A DNA stretch of 64,000 nucleotides from Alphaproteobacteria bacterium (GCA_965228895.1 OZ245842.1:480001-544000); one strand, 5' to 3'; numbered from the stretch's first letter, positions 21,712 through 60,313 are shown. Notes: generated by a model not told the origin, from the sequence alone. Numbers and translations: made by a program.

Positions 21712-21900
21712 TTCCCTGATGTACGGACGGATCTCCCTGTTCCATTGCGTAGGGAACTTGCCTCTGGCTTGCTGATAAGGCTGCAAGAGATCGGCCGAAA
21801 AACTCAGAAACTGGCCAAAATCACAGATTTTCCCCGTATTCTCCCTGCTAACAGAGAAATCGCCACAGAGACGGTTCGCAGCGGGCTGCCCGCACCGCCA
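21712..21900 (+). repeat. Dispersed TTCCCTG-box element, copy 1
   Basis: Boxes at 21712, 21733, 21830 and 21841; ends CTGCCCGCACCGCCA, identical to 47015-47029. Confidence 0.85.
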
Positions 21901-22087
21901 GTCTCCTTGTCCGGCCATTTACCATAAAGCAGATTGTGGCGCTGACTTGTACGTCGAGTGTTGCAGGCCGTGTCTTTCTTGCGAAGTGAGGGTCGAGAGC
22001 TGAGACGGCTGGCTGATCGGCACGGGCCACTCTCTACACCAAGGCTGAGTGGCCCGCGCCGTCGATACGCATTTGTGACGAGGTCAG

Positions 22088-39358: not shown

Positions 39359-39479
39359 TCGGTTGCATTCGCTTGGATGAATTCCTCCTGCGATAACTCG
39401 CGACTTTTGGAATTGAGTCCGGCCAGAAGCGTCACCTATCGTCTTCGAACGGTAGGTGACCAATCATAGGATATGACCA

Positions 39480-40979: not shown

Positions 40980-40982
40980 ACC

Positions 40983-43403: not shown

Positions 43404-43480
43404 AGCGGATCATGGTTAGATGGAACCGCTTAACGGTTCCATCTAACCATGTGAATCCGCTCTTTATCGATCTGCTCTAG
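43400..43480. repeat. Palindromic intergenic element (RIME/MITE-like), copy 1, bounded by CTAG
   Basis: 18-bp perfect stem 43411-43451; ends CTAGAGCGGATC / GATCTGCTCTAG; 61/66 identical to the reverse complement of 62517-62582. Confidence 0.85.
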
Positions 43481-43492
43481 CCGGTCAAACCG

Positions 43493-44410
43493 TCAGAACC
43501 CGCCTTTAGGTGATGTGCACCACTCCACGAGATGCTGCGCCGTCGTTACGACTGGCCCGACGTCGGGCTCGTCGCCGCGCGAGACCGCCTGCCATGGGAT
43601 CATGATGCCGTCGGCGCCCACCTGCATGGCGGCAATGCGCCCGCTGTCGATATGGGGACGCATCGCCCAGCCTGCGAGAACGCTGGTGCCTTGGCCGGCG
43701 GCGACCAGTTCGACAATCGCCTCGGGCAGTTCGACGGTAGCGCCCCATCGCGGGTAGTAACCCTCGGCGCGGAACAGGCGCGCGAACTCGCGGTCGGGTT
43801 CCGGTACTTTGGTGTAGGTGATAAAGGTCTCGCCTTCGATATCCTCGCCCCCGATATAGGCCTTGCCGGCCAGCCGGTGGTCCGGCGGCGTGATGAAGAG
43901 CAGGGGATCGTCGAACAAGGGCCAGTGCCGTGCCTCGCGTAACGATGCCTCACCGGACATCACGACAAGATCAACCTGGCGGTTGGAGAGTGCCTGCAGC
44001 GGATCGCGTCCGGCTGCGGCCATGACCTGAATGTCGATACCACTCGTCTTGCCGTGAAAGTAGGTCAGAAATCCCGGCAGCCAGTGATAGGAGCTGTAAG
44101 CCTCGACGGCGACGCGGACAATGTGGTCCATGCCGTTGTTCATGCGCCGGACGTCGGCTTCGACACGTTCCATCTCGACCAGCCAGCGGTCGCTGGCATC
44201 GGCCAAGTACTCGGCCGCCGCGGTCATGCGGAGCCGCTTGTGCAGGCGCTCGAAAAGGCGCACGCCAAGCCGGCGCTCCGCCTCCTTGATGCGGTGCGAC
44301 AAGGCCGATGGTGTCAGGCCCAATTCGTCGGCCGCGTCGGTCACGCGCCCGGTGCGTCCGATCGCCCGGATCATCTGCAAATGGCGCAAGTCGAGGAGAG
44401 GTTCGGGCAT
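43493..44410 (-). CDS. LysR-family regulator (MetR-like)
   Basis: LDLRHL...VTDAADELGLTPSALSHRIKEAE. Confidence 0.92.
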   Translation of the reverse strand: MPEPLLDLRHLQMIRAIGRTGRVTDAADELGLTPSALSHRIKEAERRLGVRLFERLHKRLRMTAAAEYLADASDRWLVEMERVEADVRRMNNGMDHIVRVAVEAYSSYHWLPGFLTYFHGKTSGIDIQVMAAAGRDPLQALSNRQVDLVVMSGEASLREARHWPLFDDPLLFITPPDHRLAGKAYIGGEDIEGETFITYTKVPEPDREFARLFRAEGYYPRWGATVELPEAIVELVAAGQGTSVLAGWAMRPHIDSGRIAAMQVGADGIMIPWQAVSRGDEPDVGPVVTTAQHLVEWCTSPKGGF

Positions 44411-44515
44411 CAGTCTGGCTGAATTTCATTCACCTAAACACCCTAATGTTGTTATTGCGGGTCAGTCAAACATCAAAAAGACTACGGTCCTGAGTGTTAT
44501 TGGGAGTTAAGATCC

Positions 44516-45859
44516 ATGGCCACGTCACCATCTGTTGCCGTCAATCCCGCAAGCCAGGACACCGCCATGGCGCCGACGCAGAAGACCGACGCCGAACGCG
44601 ATCTGATCGAGCGCGCCGCGCGGGTTCTGCCCGCTGGCGGGTTCGGTAACTTCGATCCCTCTGTTGTCATTCGAGAGGGCCGTGGCGGGCGCGTCTGGGA
44701 TGAGAGTGGCAACGAGTATGTCGATTTCCTGCTCGGCTCCGGTCCCATGTTGGTCGGCCACGGCAATCCCGAGGTCATCGAGGCGGTCGAGGAACAGCTG
44801 CGCCGCGGCGTCACCTTCTTTGCTTCCAACGCCGCCGGGATCGAACTGGCCGAGGCGATCTGCGAGGCCGTGCCGTGTGCCGAACAGCTGCGCTATGTCA
44901 GCACCGGGTCGGAAGCCGACATGTACGCCATCCGGCTCGCCCGCGCCCATACCGGCCGCAGCAAGATCCTGAAGTTCGAAGGCGGTTATCACGGCATGTC
45001 CGGCGAGGCATTGATGAGTCTCGCACCGCAACGGCTGGAGAACTTCCCGCAGGCTGTGCCCGACTCCGCCGGCATTCCTGAAGCCGTGCGCGATAGCGTG
45101 ATCGTCGCGCCGTTCAACGACGCGGACTTTGCCCGGCAGCTGATCGAAGAATATGCCGACGAGATCGCCGGCGTCATCGTCGAGCCGCTGCAGCGTCTGA
45201 TCCCTCCGGCGCCGGGTTTCCTTGAGACGTTGCGCGAGGAGACGACGAAACACGGCATCGTTCTCATCTTTGACGAGGTGGTGACCGGCTTTCGCCTCGC
45301 CTATGGCGGCGGCCAAGAACGCTATGGCATCACGCCGGACATCTGCACGCTCGGCAAGGTGATCGGCGGCGGTTTTCCGCTTGCCACGATCGCGGGCCGG
45401 GCCGAATTCATGGCGCATTTCGATAAGGCGAAGGTCGGGTCCGAGGGCTTTACGTTTCAGGTCGGCACGCTCAGCGGCAATCCTGTCGCCGCCGTGGCGG
45501 GCCTCAAGACGCTTGAGATCCTGCGCCGTTCCGGAAGTTACGAGCGGATGCGCGAGACCGGCCGGACGATCATGGCGGCGCTCCATGATCGCCTGACCCG
45601 TGTCGGCATAGCACACCAAATTGTCGGCGACGCCGTTCTCTTTGACGTCGTCTTCACGGACCGGCCGGTCAGGGACTATCGCGATGTGCTTAGCGCTGAC
45701 GCCGGATCGCTGAAGACCTTCAACGCGGTTCTGCGCGAGCGCAGGATTCTTAAATCCGAGGGAAAATTTTACATCTCGCTCGCCCATGATGCCGATGATG
45801 TCGCGCACACGGTGCAGGCGATTACCGCGGCCGCCGATCGGCTTGGTGAGGCGACATGA
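44516..45859 (+). CDS. Class III PLP aminotransferase (glutamate-1-semialdehyde aminomutase-like)
   Basis: GNEYVDF, GSEA, FEGGYHG, FDEVVTGFR, GKVIGGGFP, GTLSGNP. Confidence 0.9.
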   Translation: MATSPSVAVNPASQDTAMAPTQKTDAERDLIERAARVLPAGGFGNFDPSVVIREGRGGRVWDESGNEYVDFLLGSGPMLVGHGNPEVIEAVEEQLRRGVTFFASNAAGIELAEAICEAVPCAEQLRYVSTGSEADMYAIRLARAHTGRSKILKFEGGYHGMSGEALMSLAPQRLENFPQAVPDSAGIPEAVRDSVIVAPFNDADFARQLIEEYADEIAGVIVEPLQRLIPPAPGFLETLREETTKHGIVLIFDEVVTGFRLAYGGGQERYGITPDICTLGKVIGGGFPLATIAGRAEFMAHFDKAKVGSEGFTFQVGTLSGNPVAAVAGLKTLEILRRSGSYERMRETGRTIMAALHDRLTRVGIAHQIVGDAVLFDVVFTDRPVRDYRDVLSADAGSLKTFNAVLRERRILKSEGKFYISLAHDADDVAHTVQAITAAADRLGEAT

Positions 45860-46773
45860 CGACGTTCGAACCCTATCGTGGCGTCATCGCGCCCAACCTG
45901 ACACCCTTCAACGACGATCTCAGCATCGCGTCGGATCTCTACGTCGCCCACGGCAAGGCGCTGTTGGACGGGCCCTGCGTCGCGCTGGCGCCGTTCGGCA
46001 CGACCGGCGAGGCGCTCTCGGTCGCGTCCGACGAACGCATTGCCGCGATCAAGGCGCTGATCGATGCCGGCGTCGACCCGCAGCGTCTGGTGCCGGGAAC
46101 CGGACTAACCAACCTGCCGGAGACCGTACAGCTGTCGCAGGCATGTCTGGACATGGGCTGCGCCGCCGTCATGACGCTGCCGCCGTTCTACTTCAAGGGT
46201 GTCTCCGACGACGGCCTCTATGCCTACTTCGCGGAGCTGATTGCACGTATCGATCGCGCGGCGTGCCGCATCTTCCTCTACCACATCCCTCAGGTTGCCG
46301 GCGTCGGTATCCCGACTGCGGTCGCCGCCCGGTTACGCCGCGACTTCCCGGGCGAGATCGTTGGCATCAAAGACAGCTCCGGTGACTGGGACAACACAAG
46401 GGCGCTACTCAATATCGACGGGTTGATTGTCTATCCCGGCTCGGAACTGCCGCTCTTCGAGGCAATGGCGCTGGGCGCGCCGGGCTGCATCTCGGCCACG
46501 GCAAACCTGAATGGGGCGGCCATCGCCGAGGTGATCGCACTCATTGAGCACGGAGATATGGACACCGCCAAGTCCAAGTTTGGGCACGTCCGCGACGTCC
46601 GCATGATGTTTCAACACTACGCGCCCATCCCAGCACAAAAGCGACTTCTGGCGATGGCAACAGGCGAAAAGCGCTGGGCCAACGTGCGCCCACCACTCCA
46701 GGCCATGGATGAAGAAGCCGGTCAAACGCTGGCACGTGACCTGAGGCCGGGGTTGGTTGTTCAACACGCTTGA
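45856..46773 (+). CDS. DapA/NanA-family class I aldolase/lyase
   Basis: TPF, GTTGE, LPPFYFK, LYHIP, GIKDSSGD. Confidence 0.9.
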   Translation: MTTFEPYRGVIAPNLTPFNDDLSIASDLYVAHGKALLDGPCVALAPFGTTGEALSVASDERIAAIKALIDAGVDPQRLVPGTGLTNLPETVQLSQACLDMGCAAVMTLPPFYFKGVSDDGLYAYFAELIARIDRAACRIFLYHIPQVAGVGIPTAVAARLRRDFPGEIVGIKDSSGDWDNTRALLNIDGLIVYPGSELPLFEAMALGAPGCISATANLNGAAIAEVIALIEHGDMDTAKSKFGHVRDVRMMFQHYAPIPAQKRLLAMATGEKRWANVRPPLQAMDEEAGQTLARDLRPGLVVQHA

Positions 46774-46818
46774 GACGTGTTGAGAACACTGCAAACAGCT
46801 TTGCCGCCTAAGGCGCAC

Positions 46819-47029
46819 TTCCCTGATACGGCACAAAAACTCCCTGATCGGTGACGAGGTTTCCCTGTTCGGTTGTTTAGGGAACTCTACTTTAGTCTAT
46901 TGAAATGACTGCCGGACCTTGGCCGTAAAACACAGATTTCGCCGAAAGCTGCAAAAGTTCCCTGTGTTTTCCCTGTAAACGGGGAAGTCCCCGCAGAGAC
47001 GGGTTCTATCGAGACTGCCCGCACCGCCA
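46819..47029 (+). repeat. Dispersed TTCCCTG-box element, copy 2
   Basis: Boxes at 46819, 46840, 46861, 46958 and 46969; ends CTGCCCGCACCGCCA. Confidence 0.85.
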
Positions 47030-47280
47030 TTCTCCAGCACCACCATTCTTCATCATGCAGATTATGTGAACACTACTCCAACTGCGTTGGCCCGGGTGCC
47101 GACGCTTCATACGGCCCTTGCTTCTGACAGGAGTCTCGTGAGTTTGGAAGGGGCGACAGAGCCCTGACAAAGTTCGGTGCGGTAAGCAGCGGGGCCGGCT
47201 GGAAGAATGGCGCCTCGATGGCGGTCTCCGGCAACTTCGAAATCCCAGACTTAAGCCTGCGATCTATTCGCACACGATGT

Positions 47281-47333
47281 TGATTGACACATCAGTCAAC
47301 TGCTGCCTATGGTTTTGACTGATGTGTCAATCA
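47281..47333. promoter_or_regulatory. Tandem operator: two TTGAC-N6-GTCAA sites forming a perfect 19-bp inverted repeat over a TTGACA -35
   Basis: TGATTGACACATCAGTCAA-N15-TTGACTGATGTGTCAATCA upstream of hypB. Confidence 0.75.
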
Positions 47334-47448
47334 GGTACGGATAACAGCGTATCGGCGGGCACGCTAAAGGGGCCATTAGCGAGTAAAGAAGCCGGAACAA
47401 CGGGCTCAAAAACGTCCCTGATGCGCACGAAGTAGGGAGGGCGAACCG

Positions 47449-48321
47449 ATGTGTGCGATTTGCGGATGCGGCGGCGACAACCCGGGGGGCCGAACCGGCG
47501 CGCATGATAGCCGCCGTGCCGCCCATCACCACGACCACCACCACAACCACCACCACAACCACGATCACATCCATGCCGCCGGCGCGGCGCTCGACGAGAC
47601 GAACCTTGTCGAAATCGAGAGAGACCTTCTTTCCAAGAACGATCGCTTCGCCGCGGCGAACCGGGATCGCCTTGCCCATGATCGGGTGCTAGCCCTCAAT
47701 CTCGTGTCGAGCCCGGGCGCGGGAAAGACTTCGCTGCTGGTCGAAACGGTCGGGTCGCTCCGCGGCAAGATGCCGGTCGGCGTCATCGAAGGTGACCAGG
47801 AAACCAGCAACGACGCCGAGCGCATTCTCGCCACCGGTGTCGATGCTGTTCAGATCAACACCGGACGTGGCTGCCACCTGGACGCCCACATGGTCGGCCA
47901 TGCCCTGGATGATCTGCCGTCGCTGGCCGGCGGCGTCGTGTTTATTGAAAATGTCGGCAACCTCGTATGCCCGGCCGCCTTCGATCTGGGCGAGGCCGCG
48001 AAGGTCGTGATCCTCTCCGTGACCGAAGGCGACGACAAACCGCTCAAGTATCCCGACATGTTCGCCGCCGCGCAGATGATGATCCTGAGCAAGATCGACC
48101 TTCTGCCCCATGTCGATTTCGATCCCGATCGCGCGCTGGAACGGGCGCGGCGAATCAACCCGAATCTCGATTGTCTGCGGCTTTCGGTACGCAGCGGAGA
48201 TGGCATGACGGCATGGTTCGATTGGATCGAGCAACGCGCTGCTGCTGTCGGCGGTTCGCCGCGGACCACCGGCCGCGACGCATGCCCCGTGACGAAGGGG
48301 GAGGCCCATCGCCATGCATGA
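47449..48321 (+). CDS. hypB: Nickel-insertion GTPase HypB
   Basis: MCAICGC, His-rich tract, [34 protein letters not shown]. Confidence 0.95.
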
Positions 48322-48736
48322 ATTGGCGTTGGCGCGCAGCCTGGTTGAGATGGTCGATGACTACGCCGCGCAGAATGGCGACCAGGTGGTGCGGCGTATC
48401 CATGTCCGGCTGGGTCAAATGTCGGCCATGACGCGCGCCCTCTATTTCTGTTTTGACTCCGTGTCGCGCGGCACGCGTAGCGAAGGCGCCGTGCTCGATA
48501 TCGAAGAGATACCGCTGACCGTCAGGTGCCGCCACTGCGACGAAATCAAGACGCCGAGCGGGCGCTACAACTTCCGTTGTCCCGACTGCGGTATGCCGAC
48601 GCCTGAAATGATCACCGGCCGGGAGATGCAGTTGACCGCGATCGAACTAGGCCCACCGATCACGGCGGTGCCCGCCACCGACTCCGATATGTCTCACACC
48701 CCTCACGGAGAGCCGCATGCCGTCCCAATCTCCTGA
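48314..48736 (+). CDS. hypA: Nickel metallochaperone HypA
   Basis: MHELALA, CRHC...CPDC, GREM. Confidence 0.93.
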
Positions 48737-49796
48737 CGCCTGGGACTTCGTTCCCCACCAACATCGCGGGCCCCATCGAGAGGTCGAGCCGGACGCCCAC
48801 ATCCGTTCGCCAAGCAAACACAACGGTCCGTTCAAGTCGCCGGGGTTGCGGACCTTTATGGGCGCGCCCTATTGCGAGCCCGACCGCGAGAAGGTTCGCG
48901 CTGCAGGCGCCAAGGTCTGCTTCCTGGGGGCGCCCTGGGATCAGGGCACGATCGTGCGGACCGGCACGTCGAGCGGGCCGGAAGGGGTGCGCGAAGCCTC
49001 GACCCACTACTTCCCTTACATGTTTGAGTACGACGTCGACCTGCTGACGTTCTTCAACGTTGTCGATTGCGGCGACATTCCCATCGTTCCCGGCAACAAC
49101 CCGCTGTCACAGGCCTATATGTGCGACTACGTCACGGAATGCCTGGAAGGCGGCGCCAAGGTCATTCTTGTCGGCGGTGACCATTCGGTGCCGATCCCCG
49201 GCGCGCGGGCGTTGTCGCAGTATCTCGGTCGCCACAAACCCGATGCCACGATGGGGTACCTGCACGTCGACTGTCACCTTGACGCCGCAGTCGATTGGGG
49301 CGGCATCGAAATCACCAACGCGTCGGGACCGCCGGAAGCCCTCAAGCTGCCCAACTGCAACGCCCGGAACATGGCACATATGGGTTCGCGCAACGGTCTC
49401 AATCCCAAGGACTGGCTGGATTTCTGGATCGACAACGATATCCCGATCGTGCCGATGTCCGAGGTCGTGGAGAAGGGTATCGAGCCGTGCACACGGTTCA
49501 TCCTGGACCGGGCGTGGAACGGGACCGAGGCGCTCTACTTCTCCTGGGATACCGATTCCCTTGACGCCAGCTGTATGCCGGGGACCAGTTGTCCTGAGTG
49601 CTACGGCATCAAGGCGCGCGAGGCCATTCAGGTGGCCCGCATTCTAGGCGAGTACGGCGCCGATGTGCTGGAACTGGCGGAACTCGCGCCGGTGTTCGAC
49701 GCCAGCCAGATGAGCACGAAGCTCGCCTGCAACTTGATCTACCACTACCTCGGCAGTCGTGCCGCGACGCTTCGCGACCGTGGCGAGGCGCCATGA
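48717..49796 (+). CDS. Ureohydrolase (agmatinase/arginase fold), catalytic subunit; MfmA/dimethylguanidine hydrolase-like
   Basis: GGDHS, DCHLD, DTDSLD metal ligands intact; TNAS instead of the canonical His; from memory, N-terminus PHQHRGP and YFPYMFEYDVDLL resemble MfmA. Confidence 0.85.
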   Translation: MPSQSPDAWDFVPHQHRGPHREVEPDAHIRSPSKHNGPFKSPGLRTFMGAPYCEPDREKVRAAGAKVCFLGAPWDQGTIVRTGTSSGPEGVREASTHYFPYMFEYDVDLLTFFNVVDCGDIPIVPGNNPLSQAYMCDYVTECLEGGAKVILVGGDHSVPIPGARALSQYLGRHKPDATMGYLHVDCHLDAAVDWGGIEITNASGPPEALKLPNCNARNMAHMGSRNGLNPKDWLDFWIDNDIPIVPMSEVVEKGIEPCTRFILDRAWNGTEALYFSWDTDSLDASCMPGTSCPECYGIKAREAIQVARILGEYGADVLELAELAPVFDASQMSTKLACNLIYHYLGSRAATLRDRGEAP

Positions 49797-49848
49797 CCCC
49801 TGCATCAATTCCACTCGCTCAACAATCGTTCCGTCAGGAGACCTGTCC

Positions 49849-50892
49849 ATGAATCCGGCCAAGGCATTCTTGCATCTGTTCTCACCCCTGGGCGGCGACG
49901 ACGCGGATAACTACCGTTCTCCGGGGCAGATTTCGTTCCTGCGCGCACCCTTCGTATCGGTTGACAAGGACGCGCTGCAGAACGCGAACGCAACCTACGC
50001 CTATGTCGGCGCGCCCTATGACGAGGGCAATGTCGGCAAGCCCGGTTGCGAAGACGGCGCACGCGAGTTTCGTGTCGCGTCGCTGGACTATTTTCCTTAC
50101 TGGTTCGAGTTCAACGTCGACCTGCATGGATCGTCCATCGATTGCGGCGATGTCCAGATGCCGCGCGTCAACCCGAAGGTCGCGCACGAGCGTATCTATG
50201 ACACCGTGCGTACTGTTCTTGATGCCGGCCTGACGCCGATTATCTGTGGCGGCGACCGCTCCATCTCGATCCCAGCGGCAAAGGCGCTGTCCGATCATCT
50301 CGGAAAGGACCGCAAGATGGGCTACATGCATCTGGGCGCCCATCTGGACATGGCCGACACCTGGGCAGGCGAAGAGAACGTCAGCACCTGTGCCCTGGCG
50401 CGCATCACCGAACTAGAGAATTTGAACCCGGCGAACGTCGCTCATATCGGCGCCCGGAATTCGTTCAACCCGAAGGACCATCTCGACTTGGTCAAACACC
50501 GTGGCATCCGGTTCCATCCGATGTTCGAGGTCCTTGAGCGGGGTATTGACGACGTTATGGATGAGGCGGTCGAAAACGTCTGGACCGGCACCGATGGCCA
50601 GTACGTCAGCTTCAACTTCAACGTCATGGATTCATCGGCCGCACCTGGCGTTACGGCGACTGAGAGCGGTGGCCTTGAATCCCGGGAAATCATGCGTGTC
50701 GCCGCCAAAATCGCTGATCGTGGCGGACCGGCGGTCATCGACGTAACCGAGCTTTGCCCTATGTTCGACATCAGCGGATCGACATCGCGCATGGCCGTCT
50801 GCGTCGTCCTGCGAATCATGGCCGGCATCGCCGCCAGGGACGGCGCCGTGATCGACGACACCATTCGTCGGCCCGGGTGGCAACACGGCTAA
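49849..50892 (+). CDS. Ureohydrolase-fold non-catalytic subunit; MfmB-like
   Basis: Metal ligands degenerate (GGDRS, GAHLD, NFNVMD); from memory, start MNPAK...HLFSPLGGD resembles MfmB; AGGAG RBS. Confidence 0.85.
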   Translation: MNPAKAFLHLFSPLGGDDADNYRSPGQISFLRAPFVSVDKDALQNANATYAYVGAPYDEGNVGKPGCEDGAREFRVASLDYFPYWFEFNVDLHGSSIDCGDVQMPRVNPKVAHERIYDTVRTVLDAGLTPIICGGDRSISIPAAKALSDHLGKDRKMGYMHLGAHLDMADTWAGEENVSTCALARITELENLNPANVAHIGARNSFNPKDHLDLVKHRGIRFHPMFEVLERGIDDVMDEAVENVWTGTDGQYVSFNFNVMDSSAAPGVTATESGGLESREIMRVAAKIADRGGPAVIDVTELCPMFDISGSTSRMAVCVVLRIMAGIAARDGAVIDDTIRRPGWQHG

Positions 50893-50986
50893 CTGAGAGT
50901 GCTCACCCGCCACGGCTCGACCTGTGGCGCGGTCACGAACAAGAAACGTACGAGGCTTCACAACGATCAATAAGGGGAGATGTGGT

Positions 50987-52087
50987 ATGACTATGCGGAC
51001 CAACAAGTTCAGGCATTCAGTAAGCCGACGTTCATTCTTGTCGGGCGCGGCCGGCGCCGCGTCGGTTGCGGCGACGGGTTCGCTTCTGCCGAGCCGGGCC
51101 CATGCCGCCGGCGAGCTCAACATTCTCGTTTGGTGCGATCACGCGGATTCGAAACTGCTCGAGCCTTTCGAGCAGGCGCACGACGTCAAGGTCAATGCCA
51201 AGACCTATGAGGGGACCGGCACCGCGCTTTCCATTCTCGAACAGTCGGCGCCGGGCGACTGGGACGTCATCGTTATCGACGCGCCCGATGTTCCGCAGGT
51301 CGCGGATCTCGGTATCCTGACCGAACTGTCGGATGACATCGCGCCGTGGAACGACATCTTCCCGCAATTGCGCGACGCCCCATACACGCGCGTCGACGGC
51401 AAGGTTTACGCGATCCCCGAAAAGTTCGGCTATTACGGCTTCTGCTACAACAAGGATGCCGTGGACGCGGCCGACGCCAAGAAAGGCGATATCGCCTGGA
51501 ACGAGAAGTACAAGGGCCGTATCGGCGTCTACGACTACTACTTCCCGGTCATACAGATGGTCGGGCTCTCAATGGGCAAGAAGCCGGCCGATATCACCGC
51601 CGATGACCTCGACGCTATTCGCGAGCGGCTGCTCGCCATGAAACCCAACGTCAAAATGATCGGCGATATCGTGAGCGTGCAGAATGCGCTCGTCACCGGA
51701 TCGGTCGATGTCATCGTCGGCGGCGCGGAGTTCGCCGTTTCCAATCTGATGCCGAGCAACCCGCAGCTTGACTGGGTGATCTCCGATGATGGTGGCCTGA
51801 TCTGGAACCAGGGCATCGGCATCTTGAGCGACAGCAACCGTCAGGATCTGGCGGCCGAGTTCATCAAGTGGATCATGAGCCCGAAAGGCCAGGGTCTGCT
51901 GGCGACGTCGGAGTGTTTCTGGGCGATGCCGGCCAACGAGACCGCTGAAATCTCCGATGCCGACAAAGCCAATCTGCGCTGGGACGATCAGGCTGACTTC
52001 CTCGCGCGGTCCGAGGTCTCCCTGTTGCCCGATGTCGAGATGGACGCGGCCATGCTCGATATCTGGACGGAGTTCCTGCAGTCCTAG
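50987..52087 (+). CDS. ABC substrate-binding protein, PotD-like, Tat signal
   Basis: SRRSFL, WCDH, PGDWDVIV, PEKFG; paralogue of 25647-26714. Confidence 0.9.
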   Translation: MTMRTNKFRHSVSRRSFLSGAAGAASVAATGSLLPSRAHAAGELNILVWCDHADSKLLEPFEQAHDVKVNAKTYEGTGTALSILEQSAPGDWDVIVIDAPDVPQVADLGILTELSDDIAPWNDIFPQLRDAPYTRVDGKVYAIPEKFGYYGFCYNKDAVDAADAKKGDIAWNEKYKGRIGVYDYYFPVIQMVGLSMGKKPADITADDLDAIRERLLAMKPNVKMIGDIVSVQNALVTGSVDVIVGGAEFAVSNLMPSNPQLDWVISDDGGLIWNQGIGILSDSNRQDLAAEFIKWIMSPKGQGLLATSECFWAMPANETAEISDADKANLRWDDQADFLARSEVSLLPDVEMDAAMLDIWTEFLQS

Positions 52088-52200
52088 CTTTTGGGGGGCT
52101 GACTGTTGGACGAGCCCAATCTTAGGACGTTCGACGGGCCCGGCGCTTATCAGCGTCGGGCCGGCGTCGCGCGGATCAAACTGGTTGTGATCAGGTTTCG

Positions 52201-53097
52201 ATGACCAGCCGCGTCGACAGCGATGACCGGCGCGCCTTGGGTGATGTCGATAAGCTCGGGGGCCTCGCGCTGACGCGATGGATGGTCTATCCGGCGCTGA
52301 TCTTCTCTCTGTTGTTCTTCGTCACGCCGTTCCTGGTCATGGCGGCCGTCAGCCTGTGGCAGCGGCTTCGCGGGAAGCTTGAAGCCACATGGACGTTCGC
52401 CAACTACGAAAAGTTCTTCTCGCGCGACTACCTCGTCGAGGCATTGATCAATTCGATCGAGGTGACCGTGATAACCACGGTCGTCAGCATCGTGATCGCC
52501 TATCCGCTGGCCTACATCCTGGCTTATCGCGTTCCCGTCAGATGGCAGAAGGTGTTGCTGATACTCGCGATCCTGCCGTTCTGGACCGCTTATGTCGTGC
52601 GTTCGTACAGCTGGCTTCTGGTGCTGTCCGACAACGGCATCATCAACTCGTTCCTGATGTCGCTGGGCGTGATCGCCGAGCCCCTGACCCTGGCCTATAC
52701 GCGCGGCGCCACCATCCTTGGGTTTGTTCATTTCTTCACGATGCTTCTGACCCTGACGATCTATGCGAACCTGATTCAGATTCCGCGTTCCTACCGTCAT
52801 GCCGCGGCCGACCTGGGCGCTTCCTCCCTGCAGATCTTCCTGCGCGTCACACTGCCGCTCAGCATACCCGGTGTCGCCGTCGGTGCGTTTCTGACCTTCG
52901 TCATTACAATCGGTGACTACATCACGCCGCAGATCCTGGGCGGCAACACCGAGGTCCTGGTGCCCCAGGCCATCATTCTGCAGATCTCGCGCGCCGCTGA
53001 TTTCCCCATGGCGTCGGTGATGAGCGTGACACTCATGGTCGTCGTCACGGGCATCTATTTTGCCTGCGCGCGCTACCTCAAGATGGACCGGCTATGA
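52201..53097 (+). CDS. ABC permease, PotB-like
   Basis: LPFWTAYVVRSYSW, AAADLGA, GDYITP. Confidence 0.9.
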   Translation: MTSRVDSDDRRALGDVDKLGGLALTRWMVYPALIFSLLFFVTPFLVMAAVSLWQRLRGKLEATWTFANYEKFFSRDYLVEALINSIEVTVITTVVSIVIAYPLAYILAYRVPVRWQKVLLILAILPFWTAYVVRSYSWLLVLSDNGIINSFLMSLGVIAEPLTLAYTRGATILGFVHFFTMLLTLTIYANLIQIPRSYRHAAADLGASSLQIFLRVTLPLSIPGVAVGAFLTFVITIGDYITPQILGGNTEVLVPQAIILQISRAADFPMASVMSVTLMVVVTGIYFACARYLKMDRL

Positions 53098-53888
53098 TCA
53101 GGACGTGGCTCGGACAAAGCGCGGCCGGCGCCTATCTGCTGCTGGGCCTCGCCTTCATCTATCTGCCGGTGGTTATCCTGGTTCTGTTTTCCTTCCAGGA
53201 TGGCGACCTGCCGGTGCCGCCGTTCGAAGGGGTAAGTCTGCAGTGGTACGACAAGCTGTTCGCCAACGAACGCCTGCTCGATGCCCTCATCAACTCGGTC
53301 ATTGTCGCGGTGCTGTCGGGTGCGGCCACCACCTTGCTCGGTTTCCTGGCAGCCTACAGTCTGTCCAGGTCGCCGGTGCGCTTTGAAGGCGCCGCGCGCT
53401 TCCTGTTGATCGCGCCGATCACCGTGTCCTATCTGATCATCGGCATGGGCCTGCTCACGACGTTCAGCGTGGTCGGCATCTCAAAGTCGCTCTTCGCGGT
53501 CGGTATCGGCCATGTCGTGATCAACCTGCCGCTTGCCTTTGCGATTATCTATTCGCAGATGAGCGAGCGTCACAAAAACATCGACGCGGCGGCCCATGAT
53601 CTCGGCGCCAGCGACCTGCAGACGATCCTGCTTGTCTCCGCACCGATGATGAAAGTGCCGCTGATCGCGTCTTTCTGCTTGGCCGCGACGCTATCATGGG
53701 ACGAATTCATCATCGCGTTCTTGCTGAGCAGCTTCGAGGTCACGTTGCCGGTCATTATCTTCGAAATGCTGCGGGCCGGTCTGACGCCGGAGGTCAATGC
53801 GGCGGGAACGCTTGTTTTCGCTATCTCACTCACGATCATCATGATCGCAGCGGCCGCTTTGTTGTTCAGGCGGGGGGATGAACGATGA
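53094..53888 (+). CDS. ABC permease, PotC-like
   Basis: SFQDG.LPVPP, AAHDLGA, SWDEF. Confidence 0.9.
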   Translation: MIRTWLGQSAAGAYLLLGLAFIYLPVVILVLFSFQDGDLPVPPFEGVSLQWYDKLFANERLLDALINSVIVAVLSGAATTLLGFLAAYSLSRSPVRFEGAARFLLIAPITVSYLIIGMGLLTTFSVVGISKSLFAVGIGHVVINLPLAFAIIYSQMSERHKNIDAAAHDLGASDLQTILLVSAPMMKVPLIASFCLAATLSWDEFIIAFLLSSFEVTLPVIIFEMLRAGLTPEVNAAGTLVFAISLTIIMIAAAALLFRRGDER

Positions 53889-54955
53889 ACGACAGCCTTG
53901 TCGCCTTAAAAAATGTCCGAAAGAGCTACGGCGAGCTCGTCGCGCTGAACGACGTCGACCTCTCGATCGATCAGGGACAGTTTGTCGTCCTGCTTGGTCC
54001 CTCGGGCAGCGGCAAAACGACGCTGCTGTCGATCCTCGGCGGTTTTACCACGCCGACGTCGGGCGAGGTGTGGATCGATGGGCAGGACGTGACGACCACG
54101 CCGCCCGCGCAACGCCCGACCGTCACGGTATTTCAGGACTATGCGCTTTTTCCGCATATGACGGTCAGCGAGAATGTCGGTTTCGGTCTGGCCATGCGCA
54201 GGGTTCCACGGGGGCAGCGCAAACAACGGGTCGAGAGTGTTCTGGAAACCGTCGGGCTTCACGATCTCGGTGGCCGCCGGATTGACCAGCTTTCCGGCGG
54301 CCAGCGCCAGCGTGTCGCGCTGGCGCGCGCCATCGTTGTTGAGCCGGCGGTTCTGCTCCTCGACGAACCCCTGGGCGCGTTGGACCTTAAGATCCGGCAG
54401 CAGATGCAGGAGGAACTGGTCGAGCTGCAGCGCCGGATCGAGACGACGTTTGTGCACGTCACCCACGATCAGGAGGAGGCCATGAACGTGGCCGACGTCG
54501 TCGTCGTGATCAACAAAGGCGCCATCGAGGACGTCGGACCGCCGGAGCGCGTCTATCTGCGCCCGGCCAGCCTGTTCACAGCGACGTTCATGGGCGACAG
54601 CAACATTCTAAGCGGCAAATCGATCGCATCGAATGGCGTTCAGGCGACGATCGACACGCCTTTGGGCGCCATCGTGGTCGACGGTCATATTGACGTCGGT
54701 ACGACCGCGCACCTATCCGTCCGGCCGGAGCAGATCAAGGTCGGTGCGGCGCAGTCTGACGACATGCTCAGTCTGGGTGACGCTCAGATATCGACCATGG
54801 TCTTTCAGGGCGCCCATCGGCGCTGCCACGCCCGGCTCGGGCCAAATCAAGACGTCGACTTGCTGTTATACGTACCGCCTGAGCAGGACTTGACGCCGGG
54901 CCAATCGGTCTCCATTCAGGTGCGCGCCGCCGACATCGTGCTCTTGCGGGATTGA
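53885..54955 (+). CDS. ABC ATPase, PotA-like
   Basis: GPSGSGKTT, LSGGQRQR, LLLDEP, VTHDQEEA. Confidence 0.93.
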   Translation: MNDSLVALKNVRKSYGELVALNDVDLSIDQGQFVVLLGPSGSGKTTLLSILGGFTTPTSGEVWIDGQDVTTTPPAQRPTVTVFQDYALFPHMTVSENVGFGLAMRRVPRGQRKQRVESVLETVGLHDLGGRRIDQLSGGQRQRVALARAIVVEPAVLLLDEPLGALDLKIRQQMQEELVELQRRIETTFVHVTHDQEEAMNVADVVVVINKGAIEDVGPPERVYLRPASLFTATFMGDSNILSGKSIASNGVQATIDTPLGAIVVDGHIDVGTTAHLSVRPEQIKVGAAQSDDMLSLGDAQISTMVFQGAHRRCHARLGPNQDVDLLLYVPPEQDLTPGQSVSIQVRAADIVLLRD

Positions 54956-55018
54956 TGGCCTGTGGGCCGCGTTCGGCTGCCTCGGAAGGATGACGGTGAG
55001 TAGCTTCAAAGGTCGTAA

Positions 55019-55636
55019 GTGATGGTAATGACGCAGGACAACAAACGGAATGCGACGGCCGAAGCGCTACTGGAGGTGGCGCTCGAACTCTTTTCCACGC
55101 GGGGATATGCGGATGTCACGATCCAGGAGATCGCGCAGAGGACGAACACGACCTATTCGCTGACATACTACTATTTCAAGAACAAAGAAGAGCTGTTCCA
55201 CGCGGCCGTCGCTTATTCCATCGATCAGGCGATCGAGAATTACAAGCAACTGGAAGGGCGTCACAGCTCGCCCGTCGAACTGATTGACGACTGGTTTGAC
55301 AGCAACATCACCTACGCGGAATCGCTAAAGCGCGCCGTTAAGATCATGTTCGAGTTCTCCGAGAAGCGAGACGGGTCGCCTTCAGTCGCGAGCTATGTCG
55401 AGTACTTCTATGAGTTCGAACGTAGTCTTCTGGCCGATTGCCTGCGGCGTGGTGTCGAGCAGGGTATGTTTGAGTGCGCGTCGCCCGAGTCCACGGCGGC
55501 TTTTATCTCAACGCACATTGACGGCATTTTTCATGGTGCTCTTGTCCGTCCTGGTTTGAACATCGAAGCGGCGATGTCGGAGTTGAAGACCGTCCTCTGG
55601 CAACTTCTCAAGTTCGAACCGCCAAAGGAGCACTAG
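55019..55636 (+). CDS. TetR/AcrR-family regulator
   Basis: ALELFSTRGY..VTIQEIA...YYYFKNKEELF. Confidence 0.92.
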   Translation: MMVMTQDNKRNATAEALLEVALELFSTRGYADVTIQEIAQRTNTTYSLTYYYFKNKEELFHAAVAYSIDQAIENYKQLEGRHSSPVELIDDWFDSNITYAESLKRAVKIMFEFSEKRDGSPSVASYVEYFYEFERSLLADCLRRGVEQGMFECASPESTAAFISTHIDGIFHGALVRPGLNIEAAMSELKTVLWQLLKFEPPKEH

Positions 55637-56103
55637 TTGGCATTCAGTCACGAGCCCGACAAGCGAAACTCAAAACGGCAGGCCAAGACGCTTGAGGGTT
55701 TCCGCCTTTGCGGCGTAGCCCATTTCGTTTGGCTGGATTGTTCTCCTGACGCATCAAGGAACATCGCTGATCGGACGACGACAGACCTAATTCGATTGGG
55801 TAGGGAGGTTCCAGCTCCGCCATTGAAACAGCGCCAGGAACTTACCCAACAAACCAAAGGTCTGACAGGAAACGTGATATCTCTCAGATCGTTGCCGATT
55901 TGCGGGTGATCCAGTTGGATACGGGTTGGCAGTTAGCCCAATCCACGTCTTTCCACCGTGCATATCATGGCTCTCGGGGAAGAGGGATCTGGATGTGGCG
56001 TGCTCGTACTGGCTTTCGCAACGATCGCTTCTGACTCTGGACATCCGCTATCGATCGAACGGGACGACGCTGCTTAGGTCGTGTTGGATTTTTCCCGGTT
56101 TTT

Positions 56104-56936
56104 CTAACTCGACCTTCCTCCCGTCCCCCGTAAACGGGCGACCTTGCTGAGAAGGTCGAACCAGAAAGGCGCCCCCAGGCTGATAGCGGCGACCGTGATG
56201 GCCCAACCCAGAACTGTCTTGAGCCATTCCACAAGTCCGACCGGCGGTTCGTTCCACCCAATTGGAAACATCTCTAGCCTTTGCAGGGTATCCGTCATCT
56301 CCTCGTTTGATGTCGTTGAGTCCGCAACCACTTCTGCTTGGGCTGCGAGCTGCGTGCGCAAGGCATCATTACTCCAGAGCTGTTCGACAAGGTGTATGGA
56401 GCTGGCGTTCGTCGCGATCGTGACGGCCGTGGCGATGACAAAGATGATCACCTTGACGTGCCGGGCATACCATCCAGACATCCTCGTCATACCCCCATCA
56501 AACCATGAGGCCAGGCGGTCTTTGAAACGTTGGCCACGTCTTCGCCTTGTGTCAGCCAAACGTCGAGGATGTTCTTAATCGGGTTATCGGTTTCGATCTT
56601 TCCGATGACGTCGCGAACTTCGTCTGCCGTACACGCCACGTATGATTTCTCGGCGTTATCCCTGGCAGTCAACTCGAGGAGAACGGTGCTCAGAGTCTCC
56701 GGTGCAATGTATGACGGCAGCTTGCCGTCTTTGGCCGGGTTCCCAATCAACGGATGGCGGTAGACCCTTTGAGCTTACTGATCACCGTCCAACCGCCTGA
56801 TACCGGCGTTGAGGTTTTTGGACCTCGGTCCATACATGCTGGCAATCCATTCCTGAACGGAGGATGCGACCAAACTCAGCACGATATAGAAAAGAATGGT
56901 GCCGAGGGCGATGTCGATAGCGGGATGATCAAGCAT
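56104..56936 (-). pseudogene. Disrupted conserved hypothetical membrane protein
   Basis: MLDHPAIDIALG...VQEWIA; in-frame TAA at 56775-56777; HPLI...PSYI; frameshift near 56540; WFD..M.R.SGWY...AISLGAPFWFDLL. Confidence 0.7.
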
Positions 56937-57047
56937 CTTGGTCTCCATCAATGTCTGCTCGAACCTTAGGAAACGTTCTTCACAACGTGGTGCTTGCGGC
57001 CCAGAACCGTCTATCCCGTGCTGAAGACAGCATGTGTCAGGTCGTCA

Positions 57048-57352
57048 TTACGGCTGTGCACTCGTTTGGCGCTCCAGGATCATGGCGTCTACCTGGGCCA
57101 GATTGCTTCGTAACTCTTCCGCATGGTCGTCGGTGTTGTCCGCGTCGGCGTAGAAGTGCTGACCCAAGGCTGTTTTGCGCTGCCGCCCAGTAGAACGGCA
57201 CGCGCTCCAGGGTCTACTCTTCCAAGGTCGCCTGAAATGCCGACACGGCATCTTCAGCGTGAGCCGAGTCGCCGCTTCGCCCGCCCAGCGCCGTCAGCGC
57301 GTTGCCCAAATTGTTCTGCGCCATCGCCCAGTCGAGCGGCAGGCGGTCACGC
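57048..57352 (-). pseudogene. Tetratricopeptide-repeat gene fragment
   Basis: PLDWAMAQNNLGNAL and VPFYWAAAQNSLG repeats with an internal stop and no start. Confidence 0.65.
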
Positions 57353-57403
57353 GGATCAATACACAATGGCCCAAGTCTAGGGGGCTAGGACACGGCGAGA
57401 TAC

Positions 57404-57485
57404 TTCCCTGACGAGCTGAGTTGCTTCCCTGTTAACAGGGAAGTTTCGACAAAGATGGGCTCGCAGTGGACTGCCCGTGCCACCA
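57404..57485 (+). repeat. Dispersed TTCCCTG-box element, copy 3 (short, divergent)
   Basis: Boxes at 57404 and 57425; perfect palindrome CTTCCCTGTTAACAGGGAAG at 57424-57443; ends CTGCCCGTGCCACCA. Confidence 0.75.
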
Positions 57486-57519
57486 ATTTCCCATAGTGCA
57501 GATTATGGCATGATGCGCG

Positions 57520-57717
57520 AAGGCTATGGTTTGCGGCGATGGTTGAGTTGAATTTTGGGAACCAACGGCGGACGATTTTGTATGAGCCGTCGATGCCGTG
57601 TTCGGCCCGCATCATCTCGACGTTACGCAGGGACAACGCGAAACTGGCATAGAGCCAGAGCGTGTCGGGGATGACCTGAGGTGAGGGTTGATGTCGGCTG
57701 TGCGAGATGTCTTGCAT
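57520..57717 (-). mobile_element. IS6-family transposase N-terminal remnant
   Basis: RH..SPQVI...LWLY..F.LSLRNVE.M.AE.GI..SY..VRRW..KF resembles the IS6 transposase N-terminus; no DDE core. Confidence 0.7.
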
Positions 57718-57793
57718 CTGACGGCAGCAGCAGCCGATCGTTGCGGCAGCTCGTTAGTGTGACATTGCCTCGAACCAATCTTAGCATAAGACC

Positions 57794-58720
57794 ATGCCAA
57801 TTCTGCTCCCAGACTTTCCTTCGTTCAGCTCACTGGTTGCTTTGGACAGTGTCGTGCGGACCGGAAGCTTCGCGGCGGCGGGGCGCGAGCTTCATGTCAG
57901 CGAGGTCGCGATAAATCGGAAGGTCGCCGAACTGGAAGCATGGCTCGGCACAGATCTGGTTGTCCGTCGACGGCCGCGAATTGTGGTAACGGACGATGCC
58001 AAGGCGATTGCATCGGTGTTTCGAAACGAAACGCAAAAGATTCGCGATGAACTCAGCCGCATTCGACGTCTCAAGAGATCCACCAATCGCGTGACCGTCT
58101 ATGTGTCGACGGCATTCTCGCTTTTTTGGTTGTCTCCTCGAATTCACCGCTTGCATGACCAACATCCGAACCTTGAACTCAACATCGTATCAAACGTTCG
58201 CTCAGACCGTTTCGACCCCGAAGAATGCGACATGGCCATCGTCTATACGGACCAAGAGATAGATGGATTCGAGAATATTCTGCTTTTTCATGATGACATC
58301 GTCCCGGTCGCTAGCCCCCAATATTTGAAATCTCGCAAGAGGCGCAAGCATTGTGGCGATTTCTCCCAAGACACCCTTTTATGCCTCGCCAAAAGCAACA
58401 GTCTGTTTGTCGATTGGGATTTCTGGTTCGAAGCCACCGGTTACGTTGGTCAACCCGGTCAACACCGCGAAGTCTTCAACGATTATGGGCCGATGATCAT
58501 GGCTGCCATCGAAGGCATCGGCGTTGCGATGGGATTTCGTCGGGGTATCGCGCTGGCGATCGAGGATCATCGGCTTGTTGAAGTCGTAAACACGAGCGTC
58601 CCTGCGCCCGGCGACTACAGACTTTTGGTCAGTAAGAAAAGAAAACGTAATTCACCCGAAACGGTGGCTGTGTTTCGCGACTGGATCATCGGCGAAGCTC
58701 GCAAGGGTTCTGAAACATAA
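57794..58720 (+). CDS. LysR-family regulator (GcvA-like)
   Basis: GSFAAAGRELHVSEVAINRKVAELEAWLG, WLSPR. Confidence 0.9.
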   Translation: MPILLPDFPSFSSLVALDSVVRTGSFAAAGRELHVSEVAINRKVAELEAWLGTDLVVRRRPRIVVTDDAKAIASVFRNETQKIRDELSRIRRLKRSTNRVTVYVSTAFSLFWLSPRIHRLHDQHPNLELNIVSNVRSDRFDPEECDMAIVYTDQEIDGFENILLFHDDIVPVASPQYLKSRKRRKHCGDFSQDTLLCLAKSNSLFVDWDFWFEATGYVGQPGQHREVFNDYGPMIMAAIEGIGVAMGFRRGIALAIEDHRLVEVVNTSVPAPGDYRLLVSKKRKRNSPETVAVFRDWIIGEARKGSET

Positions 58721-59035: not shown

Positions 59036-60313
59036 ATGCCACTTGGCAACACAACGCTGGCAAGCAAGACCTACCCTCACCGCGACGCCCTGTCCCATCG
59101 AGCGTCGGGCATGTCCCTAAAGGACAACGAGCCACAAGCAGACATGAACCGCATGCGCCAGTACAGACTTGGGCGCCTACAAGAACAAATCCGAGATATG
59201 GAGTATGCGGGGGCTCTGCTTTTTGACCCGGTCAATGTTCGCTATGCGACGGGCATCAGCAGCTATGCTGTCTACGGGCTGCACAATCCGCTTCGATGTG
59301 TCTTCGTGCCACCCGACGGGCGCTGCACACTGTTTGATCATGACAATCTGGAGTACTTCGGAGAGCAGCTTGGCATTTTTGATGACGTTAGAAACATGCC
59401 GACGCTTTCGTTCTTCTACTACGGAAACTTGCTTCAAGAAGCAGCCGACAAGTTCGCCCAAGACGTAGAGGTTCTGGTCAGCGACAGAGGGGCGGGAAAC
59501 AACAGGATTGCGATCGATCGTTTCGAGCCTTCGTTGGCGCGCGGGTTCTCACATACGAACCTTGAGATCTGCGATGCACAGGAGCCCGTCGAAAGAGCGC
59601 GTTCGGTAAAATCGGATGACGAAATCCACTGTATTCTGCACGCCATTTCCATCGCCGAAGAAGCACTCGGTGAAATCCGTCGTGCGTTGAAACCTGGCGT
59701 TACCGAAAATGAAATGGCGGCTCTTCTTCAATACGTTAATGTCAAGAACGGCGGTGAGTGGAGCGAGTACAAACTGATCTCTTCGGGCGGGCGCACCAAC
59801 CCATGGGGCCAGGAAGCAACGGATAGAAAAATTCGGTCGGGCGAACTCCTCATCGTGGATACGGGCATGGTCGGTCCTCTGGGGTACTTCGCCGATCTGA
59901 CCCGAACCTTCATCTGCGAACCATGTAGTCCCACGACAGAGCAGAAACGCCTCTACGCCATCGCCCTCGAGAACATTGAATACAACATGGCCGTCATCAA
60001 ACCGGGAATGACGTTCACCGAATTCTCCCATGCGTGTTGGGAGCTGCCGGAAGAGTTTACTGGAGACCGGTATCCAACGCCGCTGCACGCCGTGGGCATG
60101 CGGGGTGAATGGCCGATGTTGTGTTATCCGATCGACTTGCATGAGCGCGGTCATGAAGGGGTGATCGAAGCCGGCATGATCCTCTCGGTCGAGAGCTACA
60201 TCGGTGCGACCGATGGGACAGAGGGCGTAAAGCTTGAAGAGCAGGTTCTGGTGACAGATGGCGGAATTCAACGGCTCTCGACGTTCCCCTATGAAGCGTT
60301 GTTGATGGCTTGA
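59036..60313 (+). CDS. M24 (Xaa-Pro peptidase fold) protein, DddP-like
   Basis: LFDPVNVRYATG, SGGRTNPWGQE, DTGMVG..GY.ADLTRT, HAVG, ESYIG...EGVKLEEQVL. Confidence 0.8.
   Translation: MPLGNTTLASKTYPHRDALSHRASGMSLKDNEPQADMNRMRQYRLGRLQEQIRDMEYAGALLFDPVNVRYATGISSYAVYGLHNPLRCVFVPPDGRCTLFDHDNLEYFGEQLGIFDDVRNMPTLSFFYYGNLLQEAADKFAQDVEVLVSDRGAGNNRIAIDRFEPSLARGFSHTNLEICDAQEPVERARSVKSDDEIHCILHAISIAEEALGEIRRALKPGVTENEMAALLQYVNVKNGGEWSEYKLISSGGRTNPWGQEATDRKIRSGELLIVDTGMVGPLGYFADLTRTFICEPCSPTTEQKRLYAIALENIEYNMAVIKPGMTFTEFSHACWELPEEFTGDRYPTPLHAVGMRGEWPMLCYPIDLHERGHEGVIEAGMILSVESYIGATDGTEGVKLEEQVLVTDGGIQRLSTFPYEALLMA

Follow-up and report, generated by a model that had tools for sequence, protein, structure and literature searches.

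We describe a nine-gene cluster in a 64,000-nucleotide (nt) stretch of DNA from an alphaproteobacterial genome (Alphaproteobacteria bacterium, GCA_965228895.1 OZ245842.1:480001-544000), hereafter the window, in whose numbering all positions are given. The genes are co-directional, lie on the + strand at 47449-55636, and probably make up a self-contained cassette, devoted to the catabolism of a small, cationic guanidine with N-substitution and built around an enzyme of the metformin hydrolase/dimethylguanidine hydrolase (MfmAB/DmgH) family that comes from a separate, populous clade with a remodeled pocket. Judged by its sequence, the enzyme is neither a metformin hydrolase nor a member of the clade that holds the characterized DmgH enzymes; it belongs to a large separate clade in which a distinct pocket has become fixed. 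The first descriptions of metformin hydrolase and of DmgH, its precursor, date from 2024. Dimethylguanidine itself, according to Sinn 2024, has not been found in biology. The window provides a complete-genome example of the largest clade found in the family, with its fixed pocket and a portable nine-gene layout, and three parts of the cassette, namely the enzyme, the binding protein, and the repressor, are usable for ligand finding.

Family assignment and metal ligands

The original prediction, which was made from the sequence alone, had listed hypB, hypA, two ureohydrolases, a potD-B-C-A-like set, and a TetR gene in this interval, and all nine genes were recovered there by open reading frame (ORF) calls and Pfam/TIGRFAM-type profiles. 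The two ureohydrolases, here termed alpha (48717-49796, 359 amino acids) and beta (49849-50892, 347 amino acids from its ATG), are both of the Arginase family. When searched against all PDB sequences, alpha matched metformin hydrolase subunit A best (MfmA, 8snf; E 4e-167) and beta matched subunit B (MfmB, 8ryi_C; E 9e-158). The next-best group consisted of guanidine hydrolase chains (7esr and 9fek, E 1e-43 to 1e-45; for alpha, E 7e-45 to 7esr, which is GdmH), and agmatinase structures appeared at E 1e-20 or weaker. Alpha also scored below the cut-offs of the agmatinase models (TIGR01230, 114.4 against 174.3; NF002564, 112.1 against 302) and likewise below the curated cut-offs of the formimidoylglutamase and arginase models.

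As reference genes we used MfmA/MfmB from plasmid pMET-2 (L089) and DmgH from Aminobacter niigataensis DSM 7050 (L087), which are 93.9% identical to each other, in agreement with the 93.5% published in Sinn 2024. In global alignment, window alpha is 66.6% identical to MfmA and 66.6% identical to DmgH alpha, and window beta is 64% identical to both reference betas (63.9% to MfmB). The proposal that the pair is a divergent relative of MfmAB, grouping with MfmAB and DmgH and not with the agmatinases, is borne out by these values.

At the six metal-ligand columns (H159, D184, H186, D188, D277, and D279 in MfmA numbering), alpha reads H, D, H, D, D, D and keeps every ligand, as do all 43 members of the clade described below, and beta reads R, G, H, D, N, N, four of the six ligands having been lost, within the three to five expected of a beta in this family. 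An intact ureohydrolase followed by a ligand-degenerate paralogue is what had been predicted, and the motifs quoted for it (GGDRS, GAHLD, and NFN) are present in the translation. Alpha further keeps N200, W193, W232, and E321, and beta keeps the cap residues Y22 and F82. The roles of these residues are taken from Tassoulas 2024, Li 2024, and Sinn 2024; in the first two, Asn200 is described as standing in for the catalytic His of arginases and agmatinases. Sinn 2024 reports that alpha alone was inactive, that beta and co-expressed HypAB were required, and that specificity was set by alpha. At the level of sequence, the identification of a heteromeric, HypAB-served ureohydrolase of the MfmAB/DmgH kind can be regarded as secure, and by analogy the window enzyme would depend on nickel and form a heteromer.

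A separate clade with a distinct pocket

Among 5.8 billion proteins, a word-indexed search retrieved 154 relatives at E<=1e-30, and from a scan of species-representative genomes, the best 80 of 129 encoding loci were taken into the trees, the pocket comparison, and the synteny counts, with the 49 less similar ones left out. The tree input comprised 83 alphas (the window alpha, 81 from the 80 loci, of which L029 has two, and MfmA) together with six betas as the outgroup, and the careful tree was built under LG+G4 with the long-branch rows L050, L076, L060, L058, and L026 retained. In this tree, the alphas split from the beta outgroup at 100/100, and window alpha fell into a clade of 43 of the 83 alphas with support of 100/100. 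No internal alpha branch is longer than the stem of this clade, which measures 0.48 changes per site. The characterized Aminobacter enzymes and MfmA fell into a separate 12-member clade (support 100/99; hereafter the DmgH clade), and another clade, which includes L065 and L079, has five members. The suggestion that the window system represents a branch of its own within the family thus stands. An exclusive sister relation between the window clade and the DmgH clade, seen with a support of 87 in a quick tree, was not recovered in the careful tree.

The window clade is the most populous among the loci examined. Its record titles name alpha- and gammaproteobacterial genomes, mostly uncultured metagenome-assembled genomes, including Arenicellales and Candidatus Poriferihabitaceae, and because records from both classes stand in one clade, the cassette has crossed class boundaries. 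Literature searches returned no paper characterizing a marine or window-type member, although the supplementary trees of Sinn 2024 and Li 2024 may include such sequences.

Pocket columns were read in MfmA numbering from the alignment of the 83 alphas. The window clade (n = 43) has T81, C185, N200, A201, and T-S-C at 289-291, and this full pattern is exact in 39 of its 43 sequences. The DmgH clade without MfmA (n = 11) has Q81, S or A at 185, N200, C201, and S-T-S; MfmA (n = 1) has Q81, C185, N200, C201, and N-S-A; and the other clades (n = 28) have Q81, C185, N200, C201 (26/28), and T-T-A. Taken position by position, T81 is found in 42/43 window-clade sequences and Q81 in 40/40 outside the clade, A201 in 43/43 and C201 in 38/40 outside, and C291 in 42/43 and A or S in 40/40 outside. 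C185, which is present in 28/28 other-clade sequences, is the common state outside the DmgH clade. V191 and A320, the latter adjoining E321, are also specific to the window clade, and a four-residue insertion ahead of the D184 strand occurs in all 43 of its sequences.

Three active-site segments had been named in the original prediction as differing from those of MfmA. All three do differ (QGT against QGQ, TNAS against TNCS, and PGTSC), but the MfmA motif at the third is PGNSA and not PANS as given there. The flagged positions are the published pocket positions Q81, C201, and 289-291, and they are changed clade-wide rather than being peculiar to the window genome. Among the MfmA residues whose substitution lowered activity, Tassoulas 2024 includes Q81 and C201, and Sinn 2024 states that positions 289-291 and 185 could tip DmgH towards metformin. 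Because Q81 and C201 are constant in the DmgH and five-member clades and are changed solely in the window clade, their replacement suggests an altered specificity and provides the best argument for one that the sequences offer. Since Q81T and C201A both shrink the side chain, the pocket would also be roomier.

Gene neighborhoods in relatives

Synteny was counted within the fetched loci, which comprised 42 other window-clade, 11 DmgH-clade, and 27 other-clade loci. A hypA gene is present at 42/42, 11/11, and 17/27 of these, respectively, and a hypB gene at 37/42, 11/11, and 17/27. A homologous PotD-like binding protein occurs at 39/42 window-clade and 5/11 DmgH-clade loci and at 0/27 of the others, and one of the three window-clade loci without it (L047) stops at a contig edge. 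For TetR, the counts are 19/42, 10/11, and 0/27. The importer and the repressor link the window and DmgH clades, because both are present there and at none of the 27 loci elsewhere. The binding proteins of the DmgH clade are 61-64% identical to that of the window, and the importer genes lie upstream of hypB in those loci. The importer had been put forward as a feature distinguishing the window system from MfmAB. It is indeed of the ATP-binding cassette (ABC) type, but, given the homologues at 5 of the 11 DmgH-clade loci, it is not unique to this branch. When 1,448 ORFs from the 81 loci and the window were clustered in search of further conserved neighbors, none beyond the nine genes recurred in the window clade; the larger clusters left over proved to be shadow ORFs on the opposite strand or groups confined to a few loci.

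Systems of the other clades have surroundings of their own. Several (e.g., L065:4404-8741 and L069:14033-16452) adjoin an NMT1-type ABC system, a glutamine-synthetase-like gene, and an AsnC regulator, joined at five or six loci by urease genes, a context that would suit the release of urea and a small alkylamine. In L029:5617-11100 (CBDAUJ010000003.1), the gene order is alpha, beta, hypB, hypA, alpha, beta, importer, so that the pairs of two clades apparently share one hypBA. In four of the genomes with a window-type cassette, the second alpha/beta systems (L062, L066, L067, and L070) were found without hypA or hypB in the fetched flanks (~4-10 kb upstream), and these may depend in trans on the HypBA of the window-type cassette.

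Proposed function and candidate substrates

As proposed here, the cassette would work in five steps. A binding protein related to PotD and exported by twin-arginine translocation (Tat) would, together with the ABC transporter, import the compound, and TetR, sitting on a palindrome that overlaps the promoter, would be released by it. HypB and HypA, which appear to be translationally coupled to alpha and have no hydrogenase to serve, would load two nickel ions into alpha. Alpha would be active solely in a heteromer with metal-free beta, presumably an alpha2-beta4 hexamer as in MfmAB and DmgH. The guanidine would then be split to urea and an amine, and the urea could go to two ureases encoded elsewhere in the genome.

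With respect to the compound itself, we see about even chances of a naturally occurring guanidine that is not 1,1-dimethylguanidine and whose amine part is probably bulkier. The fuller proposal is that the window clade forms a third substrate class, served by an importer and a repressor matched to it, whose natural guanidine substrate is bulkier than dimethylguanidine; it is put forward tentatively, as something just short of an even prospect. The null hypothesis, in which the substrate is 1,1-dimethylguanidine, is a serious contender that we hold to be somewhat doubtful, and metformin is very unlikely.

Several observations weigh against a new substrate. They would fit a marine DmgH orthologue that converts 1,1-dimethylguanidine to dimethylamine and urea, with pocket changes that are neutral or serve fine-tuning, and we give this alternative a little better than one chance in three: (i) Sinn 2024 reports that a homologue from Hyphomicrobium sp. 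SMAG_U6089, 70%/68% identical to DmgH, hydrolyzed dimethylguanidine and not metformin. Because this homologue kept its dimethylguanidine specificity at ~70% identity, a different substrate does not follow from divergence alone. By its level of identity, it probably fits the five-member clade of the L065/L079 type (T-T-A, C185): L065 and L079 are 71.2% (alpha) and 68-69.5% (beta) identical to DmgH, such values were seen only for the five-member clade and a few others among the sequences compared, and identity to DmgH rises to 75-81% among those members of the DmgH clade that come from outside Aminobacter. If the homologue does belong there, dimethylguanidine specificity coexists with both T-T-A/C185 and S-T-S/S185, and those positions are poor predictors. 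(ii) The PotD-type importer and TetR are common to the window and DmgH clades, which fits a shared substrate class. (iii) None of the 42 window-clade genomes pairs its system with one of the DmgH clade, so that the window clade may itself take the place of DmgH in marine bacteria. (iv) The DmgH clade is the nearest characterized clade to the window clade in the careful tree; the window clade joins the DmgH and five-member clades together at just 63/83, and an exclusive grouping of the window and DmgH clades appears in 24% of bootstrap trees. A clue to the ligand was also sought in the PDB matches of the binding protein, and these were only distant polyamine binders.

Such an orthologue is harder to reconcile with the alphas themselves. 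Q81 and C201 are kept in 40/40 and 38/40 sequences elsewhere, yet they are replaced in 42/43 and 43/43 here, and substitution of either lowered the activity of MfmA according to Tassoulas 2024. The longest internal alpha branch and the clade-wide four-residue insertion argue in the same direction. The co-occurrence of systems bears on a different point. Eight of the 42 window-clade genomes carry a second alpha/beta system from another clade (L012/L070, L016/L067, L034/L066, L035/L084, L044/L072, L046/L073, L047/L062, and L029, where the pairs are adjacent), and because both systems occur together in these genomes, the window clade is not redundant with those other clades. All of the co-occurring systems come from uncharacterized clades, and since no genome pairs a window-type with a DmgH-clade system, co-occurrence is silent on the relation between the window clade and DmgH.

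The remaining alternatives fare worse. Hydrolysis of free guanidine, as by GdmH, or of monomethylguanidine in place of a disubstituted guanidine is unlikely. GdmH shares the dependence on nickel and HypAB, its chain 7esr stands in the next-best structure group (E 7e-45), and the glutamine-synthetase-like genes and ureases that adjoin other clades of the family would suit the release of methylamine. However, GdmH is homomeric and far more distant, the smaller side chains of Q81T and C201A would enlarge the pocket, and no guanidine riboswitch was found in 46500-58000 (Rfam, E<=1). A metformin hydrolase is scarcely credible, even though the family and the operon logic are the same and C185 and S290 are as in MfmA. 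C185 is no marker of metformin activity, being present in 28/28 other-clade sequences, and the signature N289-S290-A291 is replaced by T-S-C. Among known metformin hydrolases, mutual identity exceeds 97% according to Tassoulas 2024, against 66.6% for the window. In Li 2024, homologues at 93.8% and 71.2% identity were ~20,000-fold less active and one at 61.7% was inactive; the last is RsMetCaCb, 61.7% identical to MetCa, whose source the main text does not name. An ordinary homomeric Mn-dependent agmatinase lying by coincidence beside a hypBA that serves the distant ureases is hardly tenable, for although those two ureases need nickel and agmatinase models match weakly, the scores stay below cut-off (114 against 174 and 112 against 302), the hypB/hypA and hypA/alpha overlaps are 8 and 20 nt, hypA adjoins alpha at 42/42 clade loci, gain or loss affects the cassette as a whole, and N200 replaces a His that is conserved in agmatinases (Tassoulas 2024).

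If the proposal of a third substrate class is correct, the cassette would point to a so far unrecognized flux of guanidine nitrogen in communities that are marine or host-associated, and the metformin enzyme would have its origin in a single twig of a family whose substrates had already diversified. If the substrate is dimethylguanidine, DmgH would be extended to marine bacteria and a natural marine source of the compound would be implied. The identity of the substrate would address the natural role of these nickel enzymes and the origin of the drug-degrading enzyme, and it would show which of the pocket positions, T81, A201, and C291 being the candidates, determine specificity.

Cassette genes and their proposed regulation

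The cassette opens with hypB (47449-48321; TIGR00073, 275 bits against a cut-off of 121), whose translation has a CxxCGC motif at the N-terminus, a His-rich stretch, and a P-loop and is called as a nickel-inserting GTPase. It overlaps by 8 nt with hypA (48314-48736; PF01155, E 5e-28), a nickel metallochaperone gene whose product has an MHE N-terminus and two CxxC pairs, and hypA in turn overlaps alpha by 20 nt. The mechanical ORF of beta starts at GTG 49759. The most likely start is, however, the ATG at 49849, which leaves no overlap with alpha, because a GGAG lies 8 nt upstream and the resulting N-terminus, MNPAK, aligns to MfmB residue 1.

The periplasmic binding protein, a distant PotD relative, is encoded at 50924-52087 (SBP_bac_8 PF13416, E 2e-27) and carries a TIGR01409 Tat signal; its true start is probably the Met at ~50987, just ahead of the twin-arginine motif. 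In the PDB, polyamine binders match it best, at E 3e-16 or weaker. It is followed by a PotB-like and a PotC-like ABC permease (52201-53097 and 53094-53888, both BPD_transp_1) and a PotA-like ABC ATPase with a TOBE domain (53885-54955, by profile matches). A TetR-family regulator (55019-55636; PF00440, E 4e-15) is the last gene of the cassette.

Upstream of hypB, a perfect 19-nt inverted repeat with a 15-nt spacer (47281-47333, + strand; arms 47281-47299 and 47315-47333) fits a putative TetR operator. The only promoter-like site upstream of hypB (47284-47313; TTGACA, 18 nt, TATGGT; 10/12 positions) overlaps this palindrome. Palindromes of a related kind (GATTGAC...GTCAATC) occur upstream of hypB, at a distance of 100-200 nt, in L011, L012, and L023, with looser versions in L039 and L049; in many other loci, no palindrome was found upstream of hypB at the thresholds used. 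Riboswitch control was looked for by an Rfam scan of 46500-58000 at E<=1, in which the sole match was a chance microRNA hit on the palindrome. Terminator-like sites, at 6 against an expectation of 8.4, showed no enrichment.

Genome setting and nickel

The genome is a single contig of 5.53 Mb, 98.7% complete, and the window corresponds to its 480-544 kb interval. Across this contig, there were no matches to a NiFe hydrogenase large subunit, and the cassette hypA is the sole hypA match in the genome. HypBA is thus hydrogenase-free in the genome as a whole, as had been predicted from the window. The accompanying statement that neither hydrogenase nor urease is present holds for the window but not, as regards urease, for the genome, where two urease alpha genes lie far from the cassette at 2.81 and 3.87 Mb. 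A NicO-type nickel permease is encoded at 2.94 Mb, and a search of the genome for HupE/UreJ returned none. When the alpha protein was searched against its own genome, 23 further ureohydrolase-family matches were found at E<=1e-5 (24 in all, some genes being split over two), an unusually large paralogue set of guanidino-compound hydrolases.

Mobility and flanking regions

A segment of ~9.0 kb (47037-56022) that holds the whole cassette is absent from a genome of the same genus (G002, contig C9, by blastn), in which the counterpart of 46950-47036 lies just 68 bp from that of 56023-56949. Because these flanks nearly abut, 47037-56022 is a single insertion or deletion unit. Another genome of the same genus (G001) carries window positions 47707-55621 at 86% DNA identity, with flanks at 83-84%. 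A window-type alpha (at least 83% identity) was found in 8/24 other genomes of the same family and in 1/2 of the same genus, and none was found at E<=1e-100 in 16 genomes of other families of the class. No transposase or integrase was seen in 47037-56022, and profile searches gave no transposase in the cassette. Carriage on a plasmid or transposon was considered and rejected: when the 8.2-kb region was searched against 72,556 plasmids by megablast, no place covered at least 80% of the query, and only short pieces of hypB and the ABC ATPase matched. A protein search of the plasmids returned solely three Pseudomonas MfmA plasmids, at 65.8% identity.

The original prediction also held that the segment is bounded by TTCCCTG elements. 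This word is found 13 times in the window where 6.65 copies would be expected, a count of 13 being reached in 2 of 100 shuffles, and 7 of the 13 copies fall in two clusters, 46819-46975 and 57404-57442. The left cluster does lie at the left junction, but the right one lies ~1.4 kb beyond the right junction. The element behind the left cluster is an intergenic repeat of ~115 nt (46950-47066, + strand) that contains the TTCCCTG word twice, besides an inverted copy and a conserved tail; it abuts the left indel junction and is retained in G002. Further copies occur at 21830-21906 and 57404-57510, and BLAST gave nine matches in the genome, seven on the + strand at 381-562 kb and two on the - strand near 4.24-4.25 Mb. 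The scan of 46500-58000 gave no Rfam match for the repeat. It is a dispersed element and not a boundary pair.

A second repeat, at 43399-43471 between the DAO/GCV_T and LysR genes, is a near-perfect hairpin of ~70 nt (-47 kcal/mol, z-score -11). Its copies, at 83-96% identity, run to dozens and are spread across G001 and G002, and it resembles a repetitive extragenic palindrome (REP) or a miniature inverted-repeat transposable element (MITE).

The flanks on either side (35566-46773 and 59036-60313) hold methylated-amine and amino-acid catabolic genes. Upstream, these are genes for an aldehyde dehydrogenase, a D-glutamate cyclase-like protein, an MttB-family methyltransferase, a dimethylglycine-type DAO/GCV_T dehydrogenase, a LysR regulator, a class-III aminotransferase, and a DHDPS-family protein; downstream, at 59036-60313, there is an M24 creatinase/prolidase-like gene. 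The upstream flank genes are not part of the cassette, because 40011-46763, the stretch of that flank within the query, is conserved in the cassette-free G002. The 2.1 kb downstream of TetR (55640-57790) are without Pfam-matching ORFs; within them, 56023-56949 and 57171-57354, including a minus-strand ORF of 151 amino acids, are conserved at 75-76% in G002.

Comparison with known systems

The closest known system is MfmAB (also described as MefH and MetCaCb; Pseudomonas mendocina MET-2 and Aminobacter; PDB 8SNF, 8RYI, 8X3G). Both systems combine a catalytic alpha with a ligand-degenerate beta, have hypB and hypA immediately upstream and a TetR gene in the cluster, and keep the six ligands, N200, W193, W232, E321, and beta residues Y22 and F82. 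In contrast, the window alpha has T81, A201, T-S-C, and the four-residue insertion where MfmA has Q81, C201, and N-S-A. The window has an ABC importer, whereas the Aminobacter and Pseudomonas loci have a CodB permease and a HupE/UreJ gene. Finally, the window lies on a 5.5-Mb single-contig genome, unlike MfmAB, which is a transposon-borne plasmid copy.

DmgH (Aminobacter niigataensis DSM 7050, L087) has the same architecture, but the window lies outside its 12-member clade, with an alpha identity of 66.6%, and has T81, C185, A201, and T-S-C in place of the Q81, S/A185, C201, and S-T-S of the DmgH clade. In Aminobacter numbering, the DmgH pocket is Q81, C201, S288-T289-S290, and S184, a combination that window alpha lacks; as the Hyphomicrobium homologue illustrates, this pattern may not be required for dimethylguanidine activity. 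The importer and TetR genes are downstream in the window and upstream of hypB in the DmgH-clade loci. The clade to which Hyphomicrobium SMAG_U6089 presumably belongs has Q81, C201, T-T-A, an NMT1-type transporter, and a glutamine-synthetase-like and urease context.

GdmH (Sll1077; PDB 7ESR, 7OI1) is likewise a nickel-dependent ureohydrolase matured by HypA/HypB-like proteins. Unlike the predicted heteromer of the window, it is homomeric and distant (E 7e-45 to alpha), and it keeps, according to Tassoulas 2024, the catalytic His where the window enzyme has N200.

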